From: an uncultured Actinomycetes bacterium
GTDB lineage: Bacteria; Actinomycetota; UBA4738; HRBIN12
DNA: 64,000 nt
Reading direction: 5' to 3'
Assembly: GCA_963817235.1 (NCBI GenBank)
Contig: CAWFNS010000001.1
Span: 74,951-138,950, forward strand
Part shown: positions 894 to 22,602 of the stretch, piece by piece
Layout of the letters: each line of letters opens with the position of its first letter
Numbering within the stretch: position 1 is the first letter of the stretch
Notes under the pieces: generated by a model
Seen by the model: only the letters and a program-made list of their open reading frames with translations
Database searches by the model: none
Told to the model about the DNA's origin: nothing
Translations under genes and position numbers: made by a program

Positions 894-1823
894 GTGCCGG
901 AAACGATCCTCGTCGTCGACGACGATCCGGATATCGCGCGGTTCGTCGAGGTCAACCTCCGCTCGGCGGGGTACGACGTGACGGTCGCGGGCGACGGCGA
1001 GGAGGCGCTCGAGAAGGCCTCCGAGATCCGCCCGGACCTCGTGCTGCTGGACGTGATGATGCCGCGCATCGACGGGTTCGAGGTGGCGCAGCGGCTCCGG
1101 AAGAACCCCCAGACCGCGAACACGAGCATCATCATGCTCACCGCGAAGGCGCTGTCCGCCGACAAGGTCACCGGCCTGCAGTCCGGCGCCGACGACTACA
1201 TCATCAAGCCGTTCGACCCGATCGAGCTCCTCGCGCGCGTGAAGGGGACCTTGCGGCGCGCGAAGGAGATGCGGAACCTCTCGCCGCTGACCGGGTTGCC
1301 GGGCAACATCCGTATCCAGGAGGAGATCGAGCGCCAGGTCCGCGAGAGCCGGCCGTTCGCCGTGCTGTATTGCGACCTCGACAACTTCAAGGCGTACAAC
1401 GACCAGAAGGGCTTCGTCCGCGGGGACCGGCTCATCCAGTCGGTCGCGCGGATCATCCAGGACGCCGTGCTCGATCGCAACGGCACGGAGGGCTTCATCG
1501 GCCATGTCGGGGGCGACGACTTCGTCGCCGTCGTGGATCCGGACGCGGCCGAGGACGTCGCGAAGCGGATCTGCGAACGCTTCGAGGAGGCGCGCCCCGA
1601 CTTCTACGAATCCGAGGACCTCGAGCGCGGCTTCGTCCGGATCGAGGACCGCAAGGGCGTGATGCAGGACATCCCGCTCGTGGCCGTTTCGGTCGGCATC
1701 GCCAGCACCGCGAAACGCCAGTTCGCCCACTACGGCGAGGCGGTCGCGGTCGCCACCGAGATGAAGTCCTTCGCGAAGCGGCAGCCCGGCTCGAGCTACG
1801 CCGTCGACCGCCGCGCCGAGTAG
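894..1823 (+). CDS. response regulator: receiver domain fused to a GGDEF-type diguanylate cyclase domain with variant GGDDF motif
   Basis: N-terminal REC (ILVVDDDPDIARF...LLDVMMPRIDGFEV...DDYIIKPFD), then LTGLPGN, DLDNFKAYND, HVGGDDFV GGDEF-domain motifs; start codon directly abuts rpe stop. Confidence 0.8.
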   Translation: MPETILVVDDDPDIARFVEVNLRSAGYDVTVAGDGEEALEKASEIRPDLVLLDVMMPRIDGFEVAQRLRKNPQTANTSIIMLTAKALSADKVTGLQSGADDYIIKPFDPIELLARVKGTLRRAKEMRNLSPLTGLPGNIRIQEEIERQVRESRPFAVLYCDLDNFKAYNDQKGFVRGDRLIQSVARIIQDAVLDRNGTEGFIGHVGGDDFVAVVDPDAAEDVAKRICERFEEARPDFYESEDLERGFVRIEDRKGVMQDIPLVAVSVGIASTAKRQFAHYGEAVAVATEMKSFAKRQPGSSYAVDRRAE

Positions 1824-1874
1824 CGCGTCCGTCCGATATCCCGCCGGCGGGACCCGCCGTATACTCGCGTCGAA

Positions 1875-2005
1875 GCCTGTTTCCGGGGCGGGGCGCAACT
1901 CCCCACCGGCGGTGACAGTCCGCGACCCCACGGCCGCCAGCCGCGGGTGGACCCGGTGCGATCCCGGGACCGACCGTGAAAGTCGGGATGGGAGGAACAG
2001 GCGCG
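1875..2005 (+). promoter_or_regulatory. FMN riboswitch (RFN element) in 5' leader of ribD
   Basis: CGGGGCGGGGCGCAACTCCCCACCGGCGGTGACAGTCCGCGACCC...GCGGGTGGACCCGGTGCGATCCCGGGACCGACCGTGAAAGTCGGGATGGGAGGAACAGG matches the conserved RFN core (GGGCAGGGTGAAATTCCC / ACCGGCGGT / GACAGTGAAAGTCTGGATGGGAGA); lies immediately upstream of the rib operon. Confidence 0.85.
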
Positions 2006-4989: not shown

Positions 4990-5471
4990 AGGTTCACCGG
5001 GGTGAGCTCGGCGGCGCGGGTCGGCGGGTGGCGGTGGTCGCCGCCCGCTTCAACGAGCTCGTGACATCGAAGCTGCTCGAGGGGGCGTTGTCGGGGCTCG
5101 CCCGGCACGGCGTCGACGACGACGACGTCACCGTCGCATGGGTACCCGGCGCCTTCGAGATCCCGCTGACGGCGGAGCGCCTGGCCCGTTCCGGGGACCA
5201 CGACGCGATCATCTGCCTCGGCGCCGTGATCCGTGGAGAGACGGCGCACTTCGACCTCGTCGCGAACGAGGCGGCGCGCGGCATCGCCGAGGTCTCGCGG
5301 AGCACCGGGATCCCGTGCATCTTCGAGGTGCTGGCGACGGAGGACCTCGCGCAGGCGCAGGCTCGCGCGGGCGGCGCGCACGGCAACCGGGGATGGGAGG
5401 CCGCCGAGGCCGCCCTCGAGATGATCGGCCTGCTCGAAAGCGTGCGGCAAGAGCGGGACAGGACGCCGTGA
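4986..5471 (+). CDS. ribH: 6,7-dimethyl-8-ribityllumazine synthase
   Basis: [35 protein letters not shown]...[11 protein letters not shown]; ATGA overlap with ribBA stop. Confidence 0.9.
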
Positions 5472-5809
5472 TCGTCGATCGCCCATGGGGCCGGCTCGCC
5501 ACCTACGTGCTGAACCAGATGGCGACGGTCCGGCTCGTGACCGTCCGCCCGGGCGCCGAGACCGGCGCGCACTACCACCGACTGCGCGACGAGATGTGGG
5601 TCGTGCTCGATCCGGGACTCACGGTCGAGATCGGGAACCGGGTGGTGCAGGCCGAGCCCGGCCAGGAGTTCACCGTGCCGGCGGAGGAAGCCCACCGCGT
5701 GCGCTGTACGGGACCGGACCCGGGCCGGATCCTGCAGGTCGCCTTCGGCTACGACGACGAAGAGGACCGGCTGGCCGTCGGCGAGGACGAGCAGGACTCG
5801 GAGTGGTGA
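5468..5809 (+). CDS. cupin-domain protein (mannose-6-phosphate isomerase-like cupin_2)
   Basis: VDRPWGRLATYVLN...RPGAETGAHYHRLRDEMWVVL...EFTVPAEEAHRV; GTG start overlapping ribH end; the M-start ORF in another frame is Arg/Pro junk. Confidence 0.6.
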   Translation: MIVDRPWGRLATYVLNQMATVRLVTVRPGAETGAHYHRLRDEMWVVLDPGLTVEIGNRVVQAEPGQEFTVPAEEAHRVRCTGPDPGRILQVAFGYDDEEDRLAVGEDEQDSEW

Positions 5810-5938
5810 CGGGCTCGGACCTCGGCGTTGACCTCGGTCGACGCCGGTCGGGGGCGTTCCCTATACTCTGCGGGCGCGGAGAGCGCGTTCTTGTTCATCG
5901 TGCACCGGCTCCGTCCGGTGCTCGTTCGTCATAGGAGG

Positions 5939-6619
<681 letters not shown>

Positions 6620-6626
6620 GACCACG

Positions 6627-6824
6627 ATGCCGAAGATGAAGACCCACCGGGCGGCCGCGAAGCGCTTCCGCGTGACGCGCCGCGGCAAGGTCCTGCACCG
6701 GAAGGCGACCGGCAACCACATGCTCACGAAGAAGACCGGCAGCCGTCGCCGCAGGGTCGAGGGGATGGCCGAGGTCAAGGCCACCCGTGAGCAGAAGAAG
6801 CTGAAGCGGCTCCTGGCGAGGTGA
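6627..6824 (+). CDS. rpmI: 50S ribosomal protein L35
   Basis: [27 protein letters not shown]... Confidence 0.9.
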
Positions 6825-6828
6825 CGAC

Positions 6829-7290
6829 ATGGCTCGAGTGAAACGATCCGTCCACGCGAAGAAGAAGCGCCGCGAGATCCTGACGTCGGCGAAGGGCTAT
6901 ACGGGCAGCCGGCGGATCCGCTACCGGCTCGCGAAGGAGCAGGTCCAGCACTCCGGCGTCTACGCGTACCGCGACCGGCGGGACCGCAAGGCGCAGTTCC
7001 GCCGGCTGTGGATCGCCCGGATCAACGCGGGCGTACGGCCACACGGCATGTCCTATTCGCGGTTCATGAACGGGTTGAAGGTGGCCGGCGTCGAGGTCGA
7101 CCGCAAGATCCTGGCCGACCTCGCCGTGCACGACCCGAAGGCGTTCGCCGGCCTCGTCGAGACGGCCAAGGACGCGCTCGGCGTCGAAGCCGGCCGCGTG
7201 ACCGCCGCTCCCGTCGGCGCGCCGGCGGCCACCGGAGACTCCGGGCGTCCGGAGCCTGCTCGGAGCGGCGTCCCGTGCTCACCAGCCTGA
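6829..7290 (+). CDS. rplT: 50S ribosomal protein L20 (with ~35 aa Ala/Pro/Gly C-terminal extension)
   Basis: [39 protein letters not shown]...[12 protein letters not shown]. Confidence 0.85.
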
Positions 7291-8713
7291 AGAACCCGAA
7301 GGTCGCGGCCGTCGCGCGCCTGAAGAAGCGCGCGTTCCGGGAGCAGGACCGGCGGTTCCTCGTGGAGGGGGCCCACGCGGTCGGCGAAGCGCTGGCCGAG
7401 ACCCCGCCCGCGCTCGTCTCGCTCCTGGTCGGCGCCGATCTGGGCGAGCTCGCCGTGCGAGCCCGTCAGGCGGGCGTCGAGGTCGACGCGGTGAGCGAGG
7501 AACTCCTGCGGAAGCTCACGTCGACGATCACGCCGCAGCCGCTCGTCGGGCGTCGCGCCGTTCGTCGACGTCCCGCTCGAGGAGATCCCGGCGGTCGGGG
7601 ACGGTGCGTGCGTCGGGGTCCTGCACGAGGTTCGCGATCCGGGGAACGCCGGCACGGTCCTGCGATCGGCGGACGCGGCCGGAGCGGCCGGGCTCGTCTT
7701 CAGCCGAGACATCCGTCGACGTCTACAACCCGAAGACCGTCCGGGCTTCGGCGGGGTCGATCTTCCACGTGCCGATCGTCCGCGAGATGCCGGCCGGGGA
7801 GGCGATCGAGACGCTCCGCACGCGCGGGTTCCGGATCCTCGCGATGGACACGAACGGCAGCGAGAACCTCTACGCGACCGAGCTGGGCGGGGACGTCGCC
7901 TTCGTCTTCGGCAACGAGGCCCACGGCCTGCCGCAAGAGATCGTCGCGCGCGCCGATGCCACCGTGCGGGTCCCGCACGCGGGCCGGGCCGAATCGCTGA
8001 ACCTCGCGGCCGCCGCCACCGTCTGCCTGTTCGAGTGGGCGCGCCGCCGCGTCGGGAAGGGGGCCACCCTCGAGGGGCTCATCGCGGCGGCCGCGCACGA
8101 CATCCGCTCGCCGCTCACGGCGATGAAAGGGTTCGGGTACGCACTGGCGAAGCGATGGGACCAGATCGACGCCGACCAGCGCGCGATGATGCTCGAGGGC
8201 ATCGTCCACGACGCCGACCGGATGGATCACATCGTGCGGTTGCTCGTGGACGCCGCGAGGGTGTCCGCCGGGTCCCTCGAGCTCTTCCCGGATCAGGTGG
8301 ACCTCGGCGATCTCGTGGCCGGGCTCGCCGAGTCGCAGGCGCGCGACCCCGAGCATCCGGCGATCGCGTGGAGCGGTGATCCCGGTCCGTACTTCCTCGA
8401 TCCGGCCAGGATCAAGACGGCGCTGCTCGCCTTCCTGGAGTCGCTCGTGTGGTGGGGGAGCGACGGTCCGATCCGGATCAGCGCCGAGCGCGGCCCGGGA
8501 TCGGTGCACATCGCCGCGACGCGTCCGAGCGAGGACATCGACACGCCGGCCGCGGAGGCGTTGTTCGCGGCACGCAAGCCCGGATCGGGCGCGGGCAGCA
8601 AGATCGGGCTGTACGTGGCGCGCGCCGTGGCGGAGGCGCAGGGCGGCCGTGCGTGGGCCGAGGTCCACGACGGCGAGCTCTCGTTCCACCTCGAGCTGCC
8701 GATCCCAGGGTGA
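7275..8713 (+). CDS. TrmH/SpoU-family (TsnR-like) RNA 2'-O-methyltransferase continuing without stop into a HisKA+HATPase histidine-kinase core; two apparent frameshifts in the methyltransferase part (~7550 and ~7700)
   Basis: Frame 0: [15 protein letters not shown]...FLVEGAHAV...TITPQPLVG; frame +1: [48 protein letters not shown]; frame +2: [18 protein letters not shown]...[12 protein letters not shown]...[19 protein letters not shown] then, same frame, [22 protein letters not shown] (H-box) ... [22 protein letters not shown] (G2 box) to stop 8713. Confidence 0.6.
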
Positions 8714-8758
8714 GCCCGTCCGGGCGACCGCAAGGCCGTTGCTAGACTCGGCCCACCC

Positions 8759-9814
8759 ATGGACGCCGAGGAGATGTCGCGCACCCTCGAGGCCGAACGG
8801 ACGCGCGGCCTCGAGGCGTTCGATGCCGCCGGCTCCCCGCAGGAGCTCGATGCGTCCGAGAGCGCGGTGCTCGGCCGACGGTCCCCGTTCAGCGGTGTCC
8901 AGCGCGCGCTCGGGGGGCTCGACGACGAGCAGCGCCGCACGCTCGGCCGTCGCGTCAACGAGGTCCGCCGGGAGCTGACCGACGCGCTCGAGGCCCGTCG
9001 CGAGTCGTTCCGCGTCGACGCCGAGGCCGCCCTGCTCGCCGCCGACCGCGTGGATCTGTCGCTGCCGGGCCGCCGGCCCAGGACGGGCTCGCTGCACCCG
9101 CTCACGATCGTCGAGGACGAGATCGTCGAGCTGTTCCTCCGGCTGGGGTTCCGCGTGGTCGAGGGGCCGGAGATCGAGGACGACTGGCACAACTTCCAGG
9201 CCCTGAACATCCCGGAGGATCACCCCGCACGGACCATGAAGGACTCGCTCTACGTCGCGATCCCCGGCCACCCGGAGCTGCTCCTTCGAACGGAGACCTC
9301 CGCCGTGCAGATCCGCACGATGCAGTCGCAACCCCCGCCCGTGTACATCGTGGCGCCGGGCCGCGTCTACCGGCGGGAGACGGCCGACGCGACCCACCTG
9401 TCCGTGTTCCACCAGGTGGAGGCGCTCGTGGTCGACGAGGGGATCACGTTCGCGGACCTGAAGGGCACGCTCGAGACGATGGCGCGTGGCCTCTTCGGCG
9501 AGGATCGCCGTATCCGGCTGGGACCGGCGTACTTCCCCTTCGTCGAGCCGGGTGCCGAGGTCGGCGTCTCGTGCTTCGTGTGCGACGGCGTCGGCTGCAA
9601 GGTGTGCGGCAACGGCTGGATCGAGCTGCTCGGCTCGGGCATGGTCCACCCGCGGGTGCTCGAGAACTGCGGGTACGACAGCGAGCGCTTCACGGGCTTC
9701 GCGTTCGGCCTCGGCATCGAACGGGTCGCGATCTTGAAGTACGCGATCCCGGATATGCGGGTGCTCCTGGACGCGGACGTCCGGTTCCTCGAGCAGTTCG
9801 AGGGCGTCGCGTGA
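8759..9814 (+). CDS. pheS: phenylalanine--tRNA ligase alpha subunit
   Basis: 351 aa; ...[12 protein letters not shown]...[12 protein letters not shown]...[12 protein letters not shown]...[16 protein letters not shown]. Confidence 0.9.
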
Positions 9815-12190
9815 GGATCCCGCTCGCCTGGGTGCGGGAGTTCGCCCCGACGGACATGGAGGCGGATGCGCTCGCGGAGCTCATCACGCGCCGCGGGGTG
9901 AAGGTCGAGGGTGTCCTGCGGCCGTGGGACGGGCTCGAGGGCGTCATCGTCGCGCGGGTGCTGGACGTCCGCGATCACCCGAACTCCGAGAAGCTCTGCC
10001 TCTCGCGGATCGCGTACGGCTCTGGCGAGAGCGAGGTCGTCGTCGGCGTGCGGAACATGGCCGCCGGCGACCTCGTCCCGTGGGCCCCGCCGGGCGCGCG
10101 CGTCCCCGTCCTCGACGAGGCGCTCGCGGTCCGAGCGGTTCGCGGCGTGGATTCCAACGGCATGCTCTGCTCGCCGCGTGAGCTGGCGATCAGTCAGGAT
10201 CACGGCGGCATCCTGCTCCTGAACGACGAGGGGTTCGAGGTCGGCACCGACCTGAAGTCGGCGCTCGGGCTCGGCGAGCCGGTGTTCGACATCGAGGTCG
10301 AGCCGAACCGACCCGACTTCCTGAGCATCTACGGCGTCGCGCGCGAGGTGGCCGCCGCGACCGGTGTGCCGCTCGCCGAGCCCGACCTCTCGGTGGCGGA
10401 GACCGCCGAGGAGGCGGCCGGCGTCGCCACGATCCGGCTCGATGCCCCCGACGGCTGTCCGCGCTACCTGGCGCGCGTGCTCCGCGGGGTCGGTCACCGC
10501 CCTTCCCCGCTGCGGGCGCAGGCGAGGCTGACCGCCTGCGGGATGCGGCCGATCGAAGCGATCGTCGACGCCACGAACTACGCGATGCTCGAGCTCGGCC
10601 AGCCCCTCCACGGCTTCGATCTCGACCGGCTCGCCGGTCCGGGGATCGTGGTCCGGCGGGCGCTCGAGGGCGAGCGTCTCGTGACGCTCGACGAGGTCGA
10701 GCGGACCTTCACCTCGTCGGATCTGCTGATCTGCGACGTCGAGACAGCCCGTCGCGATCGCCGGCATCATGGGGGGACGGACCTCGGAGGTGTCGGCGTC
10801 GACCTCCTCCGTCCTGCTCGAGAGCGCGTACTTCACGCGGGGCGGCGTCCTGATGACCGCGCGACGGCTCGAGCTGCACACGGAGGCCTCGCATCGTTTC
10901 GAACGCGGCACCGACCCCGAGGGGCTCGAGGCCGGCGCGACGCGATGCGCGTCCCTGATCGCCGCGTGGGCGGGTGGCGAGGTCCTCACCGGTGTCGCGA
11001 GCGCCGGCGAGGCGCCGGTCAGGCGCTGGGTCTCGATGCGGCCCTCGCGCGCGACCGCGCTCCTCGGCTATCGCGGTCGCACCCCCCGACGCGGAGGAGG
11101 TCTTCCGCGTGCTCGGGATGCGCACCCGGACCGACGGCGACGCGATCGACGTCGAGGTCCCCGGCTACCGGACCGACATCGAACACGAGGTCGACCTCAT
11201 CGAAGAGGTCGTGCGGATCCAGGGCTACGACCGGGTGGGCTCCCGGCTGCGTGCGCTCGGTCCATCCCGGCGGGCTCCCGGAGCCGTACGCGTTCGCCCG
11301 CCGCGCGAAGGACGCGATGCTGCGTGTCGGGCTCCGCGAGATCAGGCCGGCGCCGTTCAGCTCGGCCGAGGACCTCGCGCTGTTCGACGATCGTGACGCG
11401 ATCCCGATCGCGAATCCACTCCGGGCCGAGGAAGGGTTCCTGCGGACGCGCCTGACCCCCGGCCTGCTGCGCGCCGTGGCGAGCAACCAAGCCCGCGGGG
11501 TCGATCGGATCGCGATCTTCGAGGTCGGGACCACGTTCCGGCTGGCGGACCCGTTCGAGGAACATCGCAAGGCCGGGTTCGCGCTCGCCGGACCGGCGGG
11601 CGACGGCTGGGCGGGCGAGCGACGGTCCTTCGACGTCTTGGACGCGCGAGGGACGCTGGAGGCGGTCCTGGGCGAGCTCGGCGTGCTCGACTGGTCCCTC
11701 GGCGATCCTGTCGGGCCGCCGTTCCACCCGGGGCGCTCGGCGAGCGTGCTGTTCGGGGGTACGGCCGGCGGCGTGCTCGGCGAGATCCACCCGCGGGTGG
11801 CGGAGCAGCTCGAGATCGGCGGACGGGTCGCCGTCGCGGTCGTCGGACTGGCCTCGTTGCGGCGTGGGATGGGCGGGACCCTCGTCACGGGCGCCGTTCC
11901 CCGCTTCCCTCCGGTCCGCCGCGACCTGGCCTTCATCGTCGGCGGAGGACGTGCCGGCCGGCACGGTCGCGGCCGCGATCCGGGATGCCGGCGGCGACCT
12001 GCTGGCCAGCAGCACGTTGTTCGACGTCTTCCGGGGCGGCTCGCTCCCGGCCGGCAGCAAGAGCCTCGCGTACGCCCTCGAGTTCCGGGCCGCCGAACGG
12101 ACGCTGACCGACGACGAAGCCCAGGCGGCGGTCGACACGATCGTCGAACGCCTCCGATCCGACGTCGGCGCCGAGCTCCGCGCCGGCTGA
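9811..12190 (+). CDS. pheT: phenylalanine--tRNA ligase beta subunit, reading frame broken by four apparent single-base indels (~10750, ~11075, ~11250, ~11940)
   Basis: [13 protein letters not shown]... continuous PheT homology recovered by switching frames: ...LICDVETA | [16 protein letters not shown]...[13 protein letters not shown] | [16 protein letters not shown]...IQGYDRVGS | [18 protein letters not shown]...RRDLAFIVG | [31 protein letters not shown]...ELRAG*. Confidence 0.8.
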
Positions 12191-12240
12191 CCGGACGTGG
12201 TTCGACCCGGGAAGGGCGCGCCACTACACTCCCGCGGCAC

Positions 12241-13161
12241 GTGGCACGCGACTATCTCTCCGTCGACGACCTGCGCTCCTCCGAGCTCCTGCACGTCCTG
12301 GATCTCGCGGCGAAGCTGAAGGCCGATCCTTCGCTGTTCGCCGGTGCCCTCACCGGCCGGTCGATCGCGCTGATCTTCGAGAAGCCCTCGACGCGCACGC
12401 GGGTCTCCTTCGAGGTCGGCATCGAACAGCTCGGCGCGCACGCGGTCGTCCTGGCCTCCACCGAGCTCCAGCTGGGCCGCGGCGAGACGATCGAGGACAC
12501 GGGTCGGGTGTTGTCCCGCTACGTCGATGCGATCGTCCTTCGGACGTTCGAACAGGAACGGCTCGAGGTGCTCGCCGGCGCCGCCGACGTGCCGGTCGTG
12601 AACTCGCTCTCGGACTTCGAGCATCCGTGCCAGGCGCTCGCGGATCTCCTCACGATCCGCGAGCGCGTCGGCTCGCTCGAAGGGACCGTGCTCACGTACC
12701 TCGGCGACGGCAACAACGTCGCGCATTCCCTCCTGCTCGCGGGCGCGAAGACCGGGATGTCGGTGCGCGTGGCGACGCCCACCGGCTTCGAGCCGATCCC
12801 GCTCGTCGTGCATCGGGCCGCCGAGATCGCGGTCGAGACGGGCGGTTCGGTCGAGACGAGCACCGATCCGCGCGCGGCGGCCACCGGCGCGAACGTCCTG
12901 TACACCGACGTCTGGGCGAGCATGGGTCAGGAGGAGGAGGCGGACGAGCGCGCGCTCGTGTTCCGACCCTTCCAGGTGAACCGGGATCTGGTGGCGCTGG
13001 CCGATCCGTCCGTGGTCGTCCTGCACTGCCTCCCGGCTCACCGGGGAGACGAGATCACCGACGACGTGATCGACGGCCCGTCGGCGGCGGTGTGGGATCA
13101 GGCCGAGAACCGCGTGCACACCCAGAAGGCGCTGCTCCTGTTCCTGCTCGGCCTGGCCTGA
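12241..13161 (+). CDS. argF: ornithine carbamoyltransferase
   Basis: [11 protein letters not shown] (carbamoyl-P binding STRTR), ...[14 protein letters not shown]...[11 protein letters not shown]...[11 protein letters not shown]; GTG start. Confidence 0.85.
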
Positions 13162-17340: not shown

Positions 17341-17612
17341 ACGTCGGCGCGGCCCCACCGCGTTGTCCATCTCGACTCCCGGTGGGTCAAGCGTGTCCGC
17401 TCGCACCTTGAGAACTGAACAGCGTGTGAAGCCAGTGACCTCGTCACGAACGGGGCATGATTCCATGCCCTGCTCATGGCGACCGTACACATGAACCGCC
17501 TCAGAACCTTGGGGCGGGTCGGGAGGTCGTTCGAAGGTGCCTCTTCGAGCGGCCGACCTCCACATAGAAAGCGAAGCCGGCCTTTCGGGGCCGGATGAGC
17601 GATCTCTACGGA

Positions 17613-19132
<1,520 letters not shown>

Positions 19133-19302
19133 AGCCGTTGGCACTCCGGCACGAACGGCATCGTCCGTTCGGTCGGGAGACTCCAGGTCGATCACTGGTT
19201 GTCCGTTCCGCGCTTCGGCGCGGGCCGGCACACGCTGTTCAGCTTTGAGGGTGCGAGCCCTCGGGCACCTTGAGAACTCGATAGCGAGCGCGAGCATCTA
19301 CA

Positions 19303-22400
<3,098 letters not shown>

Positions 22401-22485
22401 ACTCCTTTGCTCGCGCTCGCTATCGCGGTTCTCGAGGTTGCTCGAGGGCTGCGCCCTCAAGATCGTCCGATATCGGACACCAGGT

Positions 22486-22602
22486 TTCGGTGGCCATGGC
22501 GGAGGGGGAACACCCGGTCCCATCCCGAACCCGGAAGTTAAGCCCTCCAGCGCCGATGGTACTGCCCGGGAGACCGGGTGGGAGAGTAGGTCGCTGCCGA
22601 GA
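22486..22602 (+). rRNA. rrf: 5S ribosomal RNA
   Basis: GGTGGCCATGGCGGAGGGGGAACACCCGGTCCCATCCCGAACCCGGAAGTTAAGCC...GGGAGAGTAGGTCGCTGCCGAG. Confidence 0.9.

Follow-up and report, generated by a model that had tools for sequence, protein, structure and literature searches.

We have analyzed a gene in a 64-kb stretch of DNA from an uncultured Actinomycetes bacterium (the window, in whose coordinates all positions are given). The gene lies between rplT and pheS, and codes for a SpoU/TrmH (SPOUT)-class RNA methyltransferase that continues in the same reading frame into a module derived from a histidine kinase, i.e., a dimerization and histidine phosphotransfer (DHp, or HisKA) hairpin followed by a domain resembling the catalytic and ATP-binding (CA) domain. 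The methyltransferase-HisKA fusion is a real and conserved protein family, under purifying selection in hundreds of uncultured Actinomycetota. From its sequence, we consider it probable that the protein joins an active A-loop-type 23S rRNA 2′-O-methyltransferase to a phosphotransfer or phosphatase module resembling ChpT and Spo0B, and not to an autokinase.

The two halves are encoded without interruption. Both the list of open reading frames (ORFs) and a three-frame translation give ORF 7604..8713 on the forward strand as one unbroken frame with a GTG start. From ~7700 to the stop at 8713 this single frame passes from the SpoU/TrmH knot to the HisKA H-box and on into the kinase-like C-terminal domain, so that the ORF contains the C-terminal two thirds of the SpoU/TrmH domain, the junction and then ~200 more residues. 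A preliminary description of this locus had proposed such a read-through within an infC-rpmI-rplT operon. Both the frame and the operon position stand, and the peptides it quoted are in frame where it placed them. The start of the methyltransferase is split over two other frames, one holding the L30e-like domain (7275-~7546) and one the first SPOUT motif (~7548-7702). Deletion of bases 7547 and 7703 generates an ORF of 1437 nt encoding 478 amino acids, 467 of which (98%) are identical in the closest public protein (P0001), itself intact and 478 residues in length.

Are these frame breaks real? The window was compared with two related loci, one on the long-read contig of 1.27 Mb that encodes P0001 (L001, 96% identical) and the other on a contig of an Illumina metagenome-assembled genome (MAG; L002, 95% identical). 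Relative to both, the window contains nine private single-base indels in ~12 kb, comprising insertions at 7179, 7547, 7703, 10744, 11073, 11251, 11944 and 13751, and a deletion at 2069. Of these, pheT has four, the fusion gene two, ribD one and the end of rplT one, and the last is downstream of pheT. Other private indels occur in the long-read relative, whose gene calls are themselves broken, with infC fused to rpmI and rplT truncated. A pattern of private indels that includes four in the essential pheT is that of noise in an error-prone long-read assembly and not of pseudogenes. The breaks at 7547 and 7703 are assembly errors; that the methyltransferase part requires two frame corrections had been recognized in the preliminary description.

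Alternatively, the gene might be a pseudogene or a mis-assembly in this particular genome, with genuine frameshifts and either a truncated product beginning at the GTG at 7604 or none. Two +1 frameshifts lie within the methyltransferase part, and the ORF with that GTG start does span the remainder. Nevertheless we regard this as highly improbable. Private single-nucleotide indels also affect ribD, rplT and, four times over, pheT, and a viable genome could not contain all of them; the extra bases are missing from relatives that are 95-96% identical; and the sequence has no decay-like substitutions, all the catalytic residues being retained in a corrected protein so close to P0001. The window also contains an artificial ORF of 1196 amino acids (9571-13161) that links the 3′ end of pheS, by way of the frames of pheT, to argF, and the window's gene models need frame correction.

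The junction itself is sound, since between 7703 and 9736 there are no indels between the window and either relative, and no stop codon or plausible internal start is present in frame at 8040-8065. An internal start for the kinase half was considered and rejected, because there is no in-frame ATG, GTG or TTG at ~8040-8100 and the linker is not conserved as a start. The preliminary description had cautioned that a further indel might have removed a stop or a start here. We rejected a lost stop or other sequencing artefact at the junction, given the agreement with the two relatives and the 78 in-frame orthologues described below.

A search with the in-frame part of the protein returned more than 120 clusters (at the 90% identity level) of 471-488 amino acids, covering 99-100% of the query with 66-98% identity. 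The cluster proteins all contain SpoU_sub_bind, SpoU_methylase and HisKA domains, together with HATPase_c in some. They originate from JGI, ENA, NCBI and Logan, and where they are named it is only as 'TrmH family RNA methyltransferase'. In a scan of one genome per GTDB species, relatives of the kinase-like half were encoded in 244, and these are without exception MAGs of uncultured Actinomycetota/Actinomycetes recovered from soil and similar samples. A single high-scoring segment pair, in frame and spanning P0001 from residue 1 to ~476, is obtained in 78 of 81 fetched loci, Illumina assemblies included; the remaining three are long-read MAGs with a frameshift within the methyltransferase. Intact in-frame orthologues at so many loci mean that the fusion is not an artefact.

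The domain structure is given with the coordinates in Table 1. In ORF 7604-8713, Pfam SpoU_methylase (PF00588) matches residues 35-143 (E = 1.8e-25, 90.2 bits) and HisKA (PF00512) residues 158-223 (E = 1.6e-9, 38.1 bits); HATPase_c (PF02518) matches residues 267-367 with a sub-threshold score of 21.2 bits. The cut-offs for the three models are 29.7, 26.9 and 26.4 bits respectively. PF00588 rises to 127.3 bits in P0001, and PF00512 scores 36-38 bits across the window ORF and P0001, all above threshold. In an AlphaFold2 (AF2) model of the monomer (mean pLDDT 91.6; pTM 0.62) the last helix of the SPOUT domain (residues 243-259) is followed by a G-K-G-A hinge, the two DHp helices (264-292 and 299-331) and then an alpha/beta domain. 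Four residues thus separate SPOUT and DHp in the window's own lineage (hereafter the clade, 85 sequences), compared with 10-70 in fusions that carry a canonical kinase. The length of the linker is highly variable among fusions, and this bears on the mechanical coupling of the two halves. One canonical-kinase fusion (P0149, 569 amino acids) has a Gly/Ser/Pro-rich insertion of ~60 residues at the SPOUT-DHp junction.

The methyltransferase half has kept its catalytic residues. All 99 aligned sequences have N124, R130, G212, E214, S240 and N242, and within the clade N213 is present in 85 of 85 and E239 in 84 of 85. In RlmR of Thermus thermophilus (TTC1712/TTHA0275, Um2552) mutation of N122, R128, D235, S236 or N238 abolishes activity (PMC12123411), and these align to N124, R130, E239, S240 and N242 of the fusion. 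RlmR has the same two-domain methyltransferase architecture (36% identity; Foldseek template modelling (TM) score 0.88), as does RlmP/YsgA of Bacillus subtilis (Gm2553; 31% identity, TM 0.84). Using Foldseek, the predicted fold of the monomer superposes on RlmR, YsgA and AviRb with TM 0.83-0.89, and a Sinorhizobium TrmH-family enzyme was also matched. The nearest solved relatives are the A-loop enzymes RlmR and RlmP, and from this half we infer an active, dimeric methyltransferase of 23S rRNA, of the A-loop type (RlmR/RlmP/MRM3-like). A target in the A-loop is plausible. In B. subtilis, ysgA also adjoins pheS, matching the rplT-pheS slot of the fusion.

Two other assignments were rejected. The label TsnR, given in the preliminary description, does not fit: the model for the NshR/TsnR enzymes of thiostrepton/nosiheptide resistance, which modify A1067, scores 63.3 bits against a cut-off of 425 (NF000477), and identity to the Tsr and NHR structures is only 20-24%. 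RlmB (Gm2251) fails similarly, with 122.5 bits against 160 (TIGR00186). The window contains a complete rRNA operon on the forward strand (17605-22602; 16S 17605-19126, 23S 19303-22405 and 5S 22486-22602), the 23S gene of which holds the presumed A-loop substrate.

Turning to the C-terminal half, has it remained a kinase? Its ancestry is not in doubt. It shares with the class I HisKA kinases (HK853, EnvZ, PhoR/WalK-like) a DHp hairpin with the motif H-(D/E)-x-R-(T/S)-P-L-T followed by a Bergerat-fold domain, and it matches HK853 both in sequence (phmmer E = 6.6e-14) and in predicted fold (Foldseek TM 0.72-0.75 to the kinase-derived half). Judged by these similarities it clearly descends from a class I HisKA kinase. 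His274 and Asp275 are found in 85 of 85 clade sequences, aligning to H260-E261 of HK853, and HDIRSPLT is invariant in the clade apart from one Ile-to-Leu change. Thus the HisKA domain and the His-acidic pair that characterize class I kinases are present, but a HATPase_c domain with N, G1 and G2 boxes is not.

The Asn of the N-box and the Asp of G1 are conserved across GHKL ATPases for the binding of Mg-ATP. In the clade both N-box Asn residues have gone from 85/85 sequences (replaced by Ala or Ser, and by Ser or Ala), and the Lys-Tyr has become an invariant Trp392 and a near-invariant Trp393 (83/85). The G1 Asp has been replaced by Arg416 in every sequence (85/85); the second G1 Gly is likewise lost in 85/85, and the first kept in 72/85. 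The GxGLGL of G2 has become GSKIGL, with Lys442 replacing one Gly in 85/85, and the lid is shorter by 3-6 residues than in canonical relatives. Residues map in the same way whether the alignment is made to canonical relatives or to HK853. HATPase_c scores 19-21 bits in clade proteins, below the threshold, as against 102 bits for P0151, one of the canonical fusions. The preliminary description had seen a complete histidine-kinase core with a HATPase G2-box. The box is indeed partly canonical, with the sequence change noted; the core is not complete, since the Asn, the Asp and the G1 glycines are missing. The C-terminal half of the clade protein is probably not an autokinase.

The degenerate domain has nevertheless been maintained. 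The ratio of nonsynonymous to synonymous substitution rates (dN/dS; pairwise Nei-Gojobori over 88 pairs with 78% identity or more) is 0.063 for the DHp, 0.109 for SPOUT, 0.141 for the CA-like domain and 0.157 for the N-terminal domain. The low value for the CA-like domain indicates that it has been kept by selection despite its degeneration, and nowhere in the protein is the constraint stronger than at the phosphotransfer site.

When 1.8 billion cluster representatives were scored with P0001, full-length fusions were found down to 31% identity. Among the distant ones are fusions with a textbook kinase (P0140, P0143, P0148, P0151, P0154, P0165, P0176, P0196 and P0260), having an N-box of NL(V/L)ENAxK(Y/H), a G1 of DxGxG(I/L/M), an F-box and a G2 of GxG(L/I/F)G(L). 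Some boxes are weakened, G1 being DPGSS in P0140 and G2 being GLAL in P0148 and P0196; in P0209, of the same group, both G1 and G2 are weakened. The canonical-kinase fusions share the rplT-pheS slot. Degenerate ATP-binding motifs are seen in a further set, made up of the window's clade together with P0121 and, at greater divergence, P0122-P0135. Short matches that might have represented a stand-alone degenerate module (e.g., P0126 and P0128) all start within the SPOUT C-terminus; they are fragments at contig ends, and a free-standing module was rejected.

In its kinase half, P0151 shares 55-60% identity with the many members of a family of PAS-HisKA-HATPase kinases of ~340 amino acids, which where named are assigned to Acidimicrobiia, Acidimicrobiales, Acidimicrobiaceae or just Actinomycetota. 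In three of three contigs (L084, L085 and L087) the gene for such a PAS-kinase directly follows that of a 255-residue SpoU methyltransferase, between rplT and pheS. L084 was read base by base; the stop codon of its methyltransferase overlaps the start of the kinase in the sequence GTGA, which suggests that the pair is translationally coupled. The preliminary description would have been overturned if orthologous loci always encoded two genes. The two-gene form does exist, in Acidimicrobiia and with a PAS domain in its kinase, beside the single gene found at 78 of the 81 loci.

In both of their halves, the canonical fusions come nearest to the two-gene form (47-49% identity for the methyltransferase, 55-64% for the kinase). 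The association of methyltransferase and kinase is on this account older and wider than the fusion, and the comparison shows that it predates the fusion or else exists independently of it. The fusion itself comes down to the loss of a stop codon together with the loss of the PAS domain. What emerges is a graded series, from two overlapping genes with a PAS-kinase, to a fusion that lacks PAS and has a canonical kinase, to a fusion in which the ATP-binding residues have been replaced.

It follows from this series that a kinase regulated by a methyltransferase probably exists in the sister lineages with canonical fusions. Could the clade protein itself still be a working autokinase? The SPOUT domain would then act as a cytoplasmic sensor of an rRNA precursor or of S-adenosylmethionine (SAM) or S-adenosylhomocysteine (SAH), the remodelled pocket would bind ATP or another phosphodonor non-canonically, and autophosphorylated His274 would pass its phosphate to a response regulator. 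Beyond the sister lineages, this could draw on the invariance of the H-box and the residues that follow it, on the purifying selection acting on the CA-like domain, and on the conservation of part of the lid and G2 region (GxGxGSKIGL...AEAQGG). We consider it decidedly unlikely all the same. All 85 sequences lack the Asn that coordinates Mg2+ and the Asp that binds adenine, the G1 glycines are lost and HATPase_c lies below its gathering threshold. Moreover ChpT and PhyT, histidine kinase-like proteins with degeneration of this kind, do not autophosphorylate (PMC3433190, PMC5898713).

We favor instead a C-terminal half that no longer autophosphorylates with ATP and that most likely works in the manner of ChpT, Spo0B or PhyT. 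ChpT is a kinase-derived dimer whose degenerate ATPase domain does not bind ATP, and whose His shuttles phosphate between receivers (PMC3433190). PhyT and Spo0B are also kinase-derived phosphotransferases, which shuttle phosphate or restrain a response regulator (PMC5898713). By analogy, His274 of the fusion would take a phosphoryl group from a receiver domain, give one back or catalyze its removal. The SPOUT dimer would occupy the position of the former PAS sensor, directly upstream of DHp helix 1. In SpoU-class enzymes the C-terminal helix contributes both to the dimer interface and to the SAM-binding knot (PMC12123411), and occupancy could for this reason be passed on to the DHp. On a speculative note, the presence of rRNA substrate or of SAM/SAH could bias the conformation of the DHp, and so link maturation of the large subunit to a phosphorelay. 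The kinase core had earlier been called sensor-less; this is debatable, as SPOUT sits where the two-gene relatives have a PAS domain.

It is also conceivable that the kinase-derived half performs no phosphoryl chemistry, and is a structural appendage for dimerization, rRNA binding or ribosome docking that aids recognition of an assembly intermediate. Invariant basic and aromatic residues in the former pocket (Arg416, Lys442, Trp392 and Trp393) would suit an anionic ligand such as RNA, and the protein is encoded in a translation operon. In addition, the kinase-derived halves have diverged much faster than the methyltransferase halves among the degenerate sub-lineages (32-52% identity compared with 51-62%), consistent with a change of function. 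Yet SPOUT enzymes of the same class dimerize and bind rRNA in the absence of such a module (PMC12123411), and the most constrained segment, HD-x-RSPLT on DHp helix 1, would be hard to explain without His chemistry or receiver docking. We therefore think an appendage unlikely.

If the module is a ChpT/Spo0B-like phosphotransferase or phosphatase, what might its partner be? The window has a single REC domain in its 64 kb, in an orphan REC-GGDEF protein encoded 5.4 kb upstream of the fusion gene, a candidate that the preliminary description had already put forward. The start of this gene abuts the stop of rpe, with the FMN riboswitch and ribD on its other side. The riboswitch (1874-2003, forward strand; Rfam RF00050, 88 bits) lies ahead of a ribD-ribE-ribBA-ribH operon. 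The order rpe-REC-GGDEF-ribD recurs in L088 and L089, whose fusions are 68-71% identical, and the 3′ end of the gene is visible in L001 and L069. At a canonical-fusion locus (L090) there is no REC-GGDEF gene, and the order is def, fmt, ribD. The Acidimicrobiia two-gene loci have a divergent GGDEF-EAL gene, a second and independent one, just upstream of infC, on the reverse strand (L084 1487-3190, L085 342-2087 and L087 297-2045). The recurrence of cyclic di-GMP (c-di-GMP) genes beside the methyltransferase/kinase operon is suggestive, in a small sample that includes four 10-kb look-ups and whose synteny is confounded by phylogeny.

One can imagine from this that the SPOUT dimer is an input domain reporting the maturation of the 50S A-loop or the state of SAM/SAH, and that the DHp switches phosphate on and off the REC-GGDEF protein such that c-di-GMP tracks ribosome biogenesis. 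Unmethylated 23S precursor bound to the methyltransferase would toggle the DHp between accepting and removing phosphate, and the pocket formed by Arg416, Lys442 and Trp392-Trp393 might bind a messenger like c-di-GMP. Binding of c-di-GMP has been reported for the CA domain of CckA. We view this as an improbable elaboration.

A number of considerations weigh against the reading favored here. The perpendicular packing of SpoU-class dimers (PMC12123411) contrasts with the parallel bundles of DHp domains, which makes mechanical coupling through a four-residue hinge less than obvious, and a monomer model with the pTM obtained here is no reliable guide to how SPOUT and DHp are arranged in the dimer. 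No response regulator adjoins the fusion gene, and the link to REC-GGDEF is one of synteny only, confounded by phylogeny. Loss of motifs is no proof that nucleotide binding has been lost; the replacements are invariant, and another ligand or a non-canonical mode of binding ATP is possible. Lastly, R35 and R39, the RlmR arginines that sandwich the U2552 base, are not conserved in the fusion. The window has H and E at these positions and the clade Q/H and E, which matches RlmP, and the target nucleotide is only putative.

The fusion gene occupies a constant slot, after infC-rpmI-rplT and before pheS-pheT. Where a locus extends far enough, pheS nearly always lies directly 3′ to it, and the order infC-rpmI-rplT is also found in L001, L082 and L084-L091. 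Scanning 5400-9900 revealed a single promoter-like site, at 5838-5867, given as upstream of infC, and no terminator-like site before pheS on the forward strand save one in the infC leader. With a lone promoter-like site and no intervening terminator, it is likely that infC, rpmI, rplT, the fusion gene and pheS are co-transcribed.

Some further features of the neighborhood may be recorded. A small cupin ORF (Cupin_2/mannose-6-phosphate-isomerase-like) lies between ribH and infC at ~5480-5809 (forward strand), and again in L088 (8337-8687); in the window it has been absorbed into a longer, artefactual ORF (5138-5809). argF, encoding ornithine carbamoyltransferase, stands alone directly after pheT at ~12230-13161 (forward strand), and likewise in L001 (10962-11882) and L088 (14939-15859). 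In the canonical-fusion locus L090 a full argC-argJ-argB-argD-argF-argR-argG cluster follows pheT.

Table 1. Features of the fusion gene and its surroundings, in coordinates of the window
Feature	Position	Strand	Basis or remarks
Fusion gene	7275..8713	+	478 aa after removing bases 7547 and 7703; GTG start; TGA stop at 8711-8713
L30e/L7Ae-like RNA-binding domain, N-terminal (residues 1-95)	7275..7560	+	PF22435 MRM3-like_sub_bind 54 bits; PF08032 SpoU_sub_bind 32 bits; AF2 model and Foldseek match to RlmR
SPOUT (SpoU/TrmH) catalytic domain (residues 96-259)	7561..8053	+	PF00588 127 bits in P0001
SPOUT motifs	I with N124 and R130 (7645-7665); II GNEAHG; III E239-S240-L241-N242 (7991-8002)	+	
Gly-rich hinge G-K-G-A, four residues, fusion junction	8054..8065	+	DSSP of model: helices 243-259 and 264-292
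DHp/HisKA helical hairpin (residues 264-331)	8066..8269	+	PF00512; phospho-acceptor His274 at 8096-8098
CA-like (Bergerat-fold) domain, degenerate nucleotide-binding motifs	8291..8710	+	N-box AFLESLVWW 8429-8455; Arg416 8522-8524; Lys442 8600-8602
First frame break, spurious 1-base insertion (C)	7547..7547	+	Missing from L001 and Illumina-derived L002
Second frame break, spurious 1-base insertion (G)	7703..7703	+	Missing from L001 and L002
infC	5828-6619	+	Translation
rpmI	6627-6824	+	Translation
rplT	6829-7290	+	3′ end distorted by spurious base 7179
pheS	8759..9814	+	Starts 45 nt after fusion gene; pheT next
Orphan REC-GGDEF, candidate partner (weak evidence)	894..1823	+	PF00072 109 bits; PF00990 64 bits; receiver intact; GGDEF reads GGDDF

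While each of the domains belongs to a well-known superfamily, the combined architecture has apparently never been described. Full-text searches of the literature found no description of a SpoU/TrmH-histidine-kinase fusion, in keeping with the preliminary description, whose author knew of none. The public names, 'TrmH family RNA methyltransferase' or 'histidine kinase', each cover one half, and this makes the architecture invisible in current databases. PAS, HAMP, GAF or periplasmic domains normally supply the input of histidine kinases. If our interpretation is correct, an rRNA-modifying enzyme used as an input domain, encoded within the infC-rpmI-rplT-pheST translation operon, would tie ribosome maturation physically and directly to two-component signalling in hundreds of species of soil Actinomycetota. 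The three natural states, i.e., separate genes with a PAS domain, and fusions in which the kinase is predicted to be either live, or dead and yet constrained, are a ready comparative system in which the conversion of a kinase into a phosphotransferase, phosphatase or scaffold, and the contribution of the methyltransferase, can be tested.

How does the fusion compare with known systems? With RlmR, RlmP and MRM3, the L30e-domain SPOUT 2′-O-methyltransferases of the 23S A-loop, it has the catalytic Asn, Arg, Ser and Asn in common. The characterized members of that group have no C-terminal extension, whereas the last SPOUT helix of the fusion runs into a DHp/CA-like module of 215 residues. Class I HisKA kinases have a PAS, HAMP or transmembrane sensor at the input position, where the fusion has an RNA-modifying enzyme. 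The Acidimicrobiia gene pair has the same operon slot and both modules, but as two polypeptides, and its kinase has kept both PAS and a canonical ATP-binding domain; it is annotated only generically, as 'ATP-binding protein' or 'PAS domain-containing sensor histidine kinase'. For the C-terminal half, ChpT of Caulobacter, Spo0B of Bacillus and PhyT of Sphingomonas offer what we judge to be the best functional analogy. Like the fusion they have a DHp with a conserved His and a CA-like fold devoid of ATP motifs, an architectural criterion and not a family defined by homology. They have no detectable specific sequence relationship to the fusion, and the known examples are not fused to an enzyme. 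As the sister lineages still carry a canonical kinase, the degeneration in the fusion clade is recent, and independent of that in ChpT, Spo0B and PhyT.

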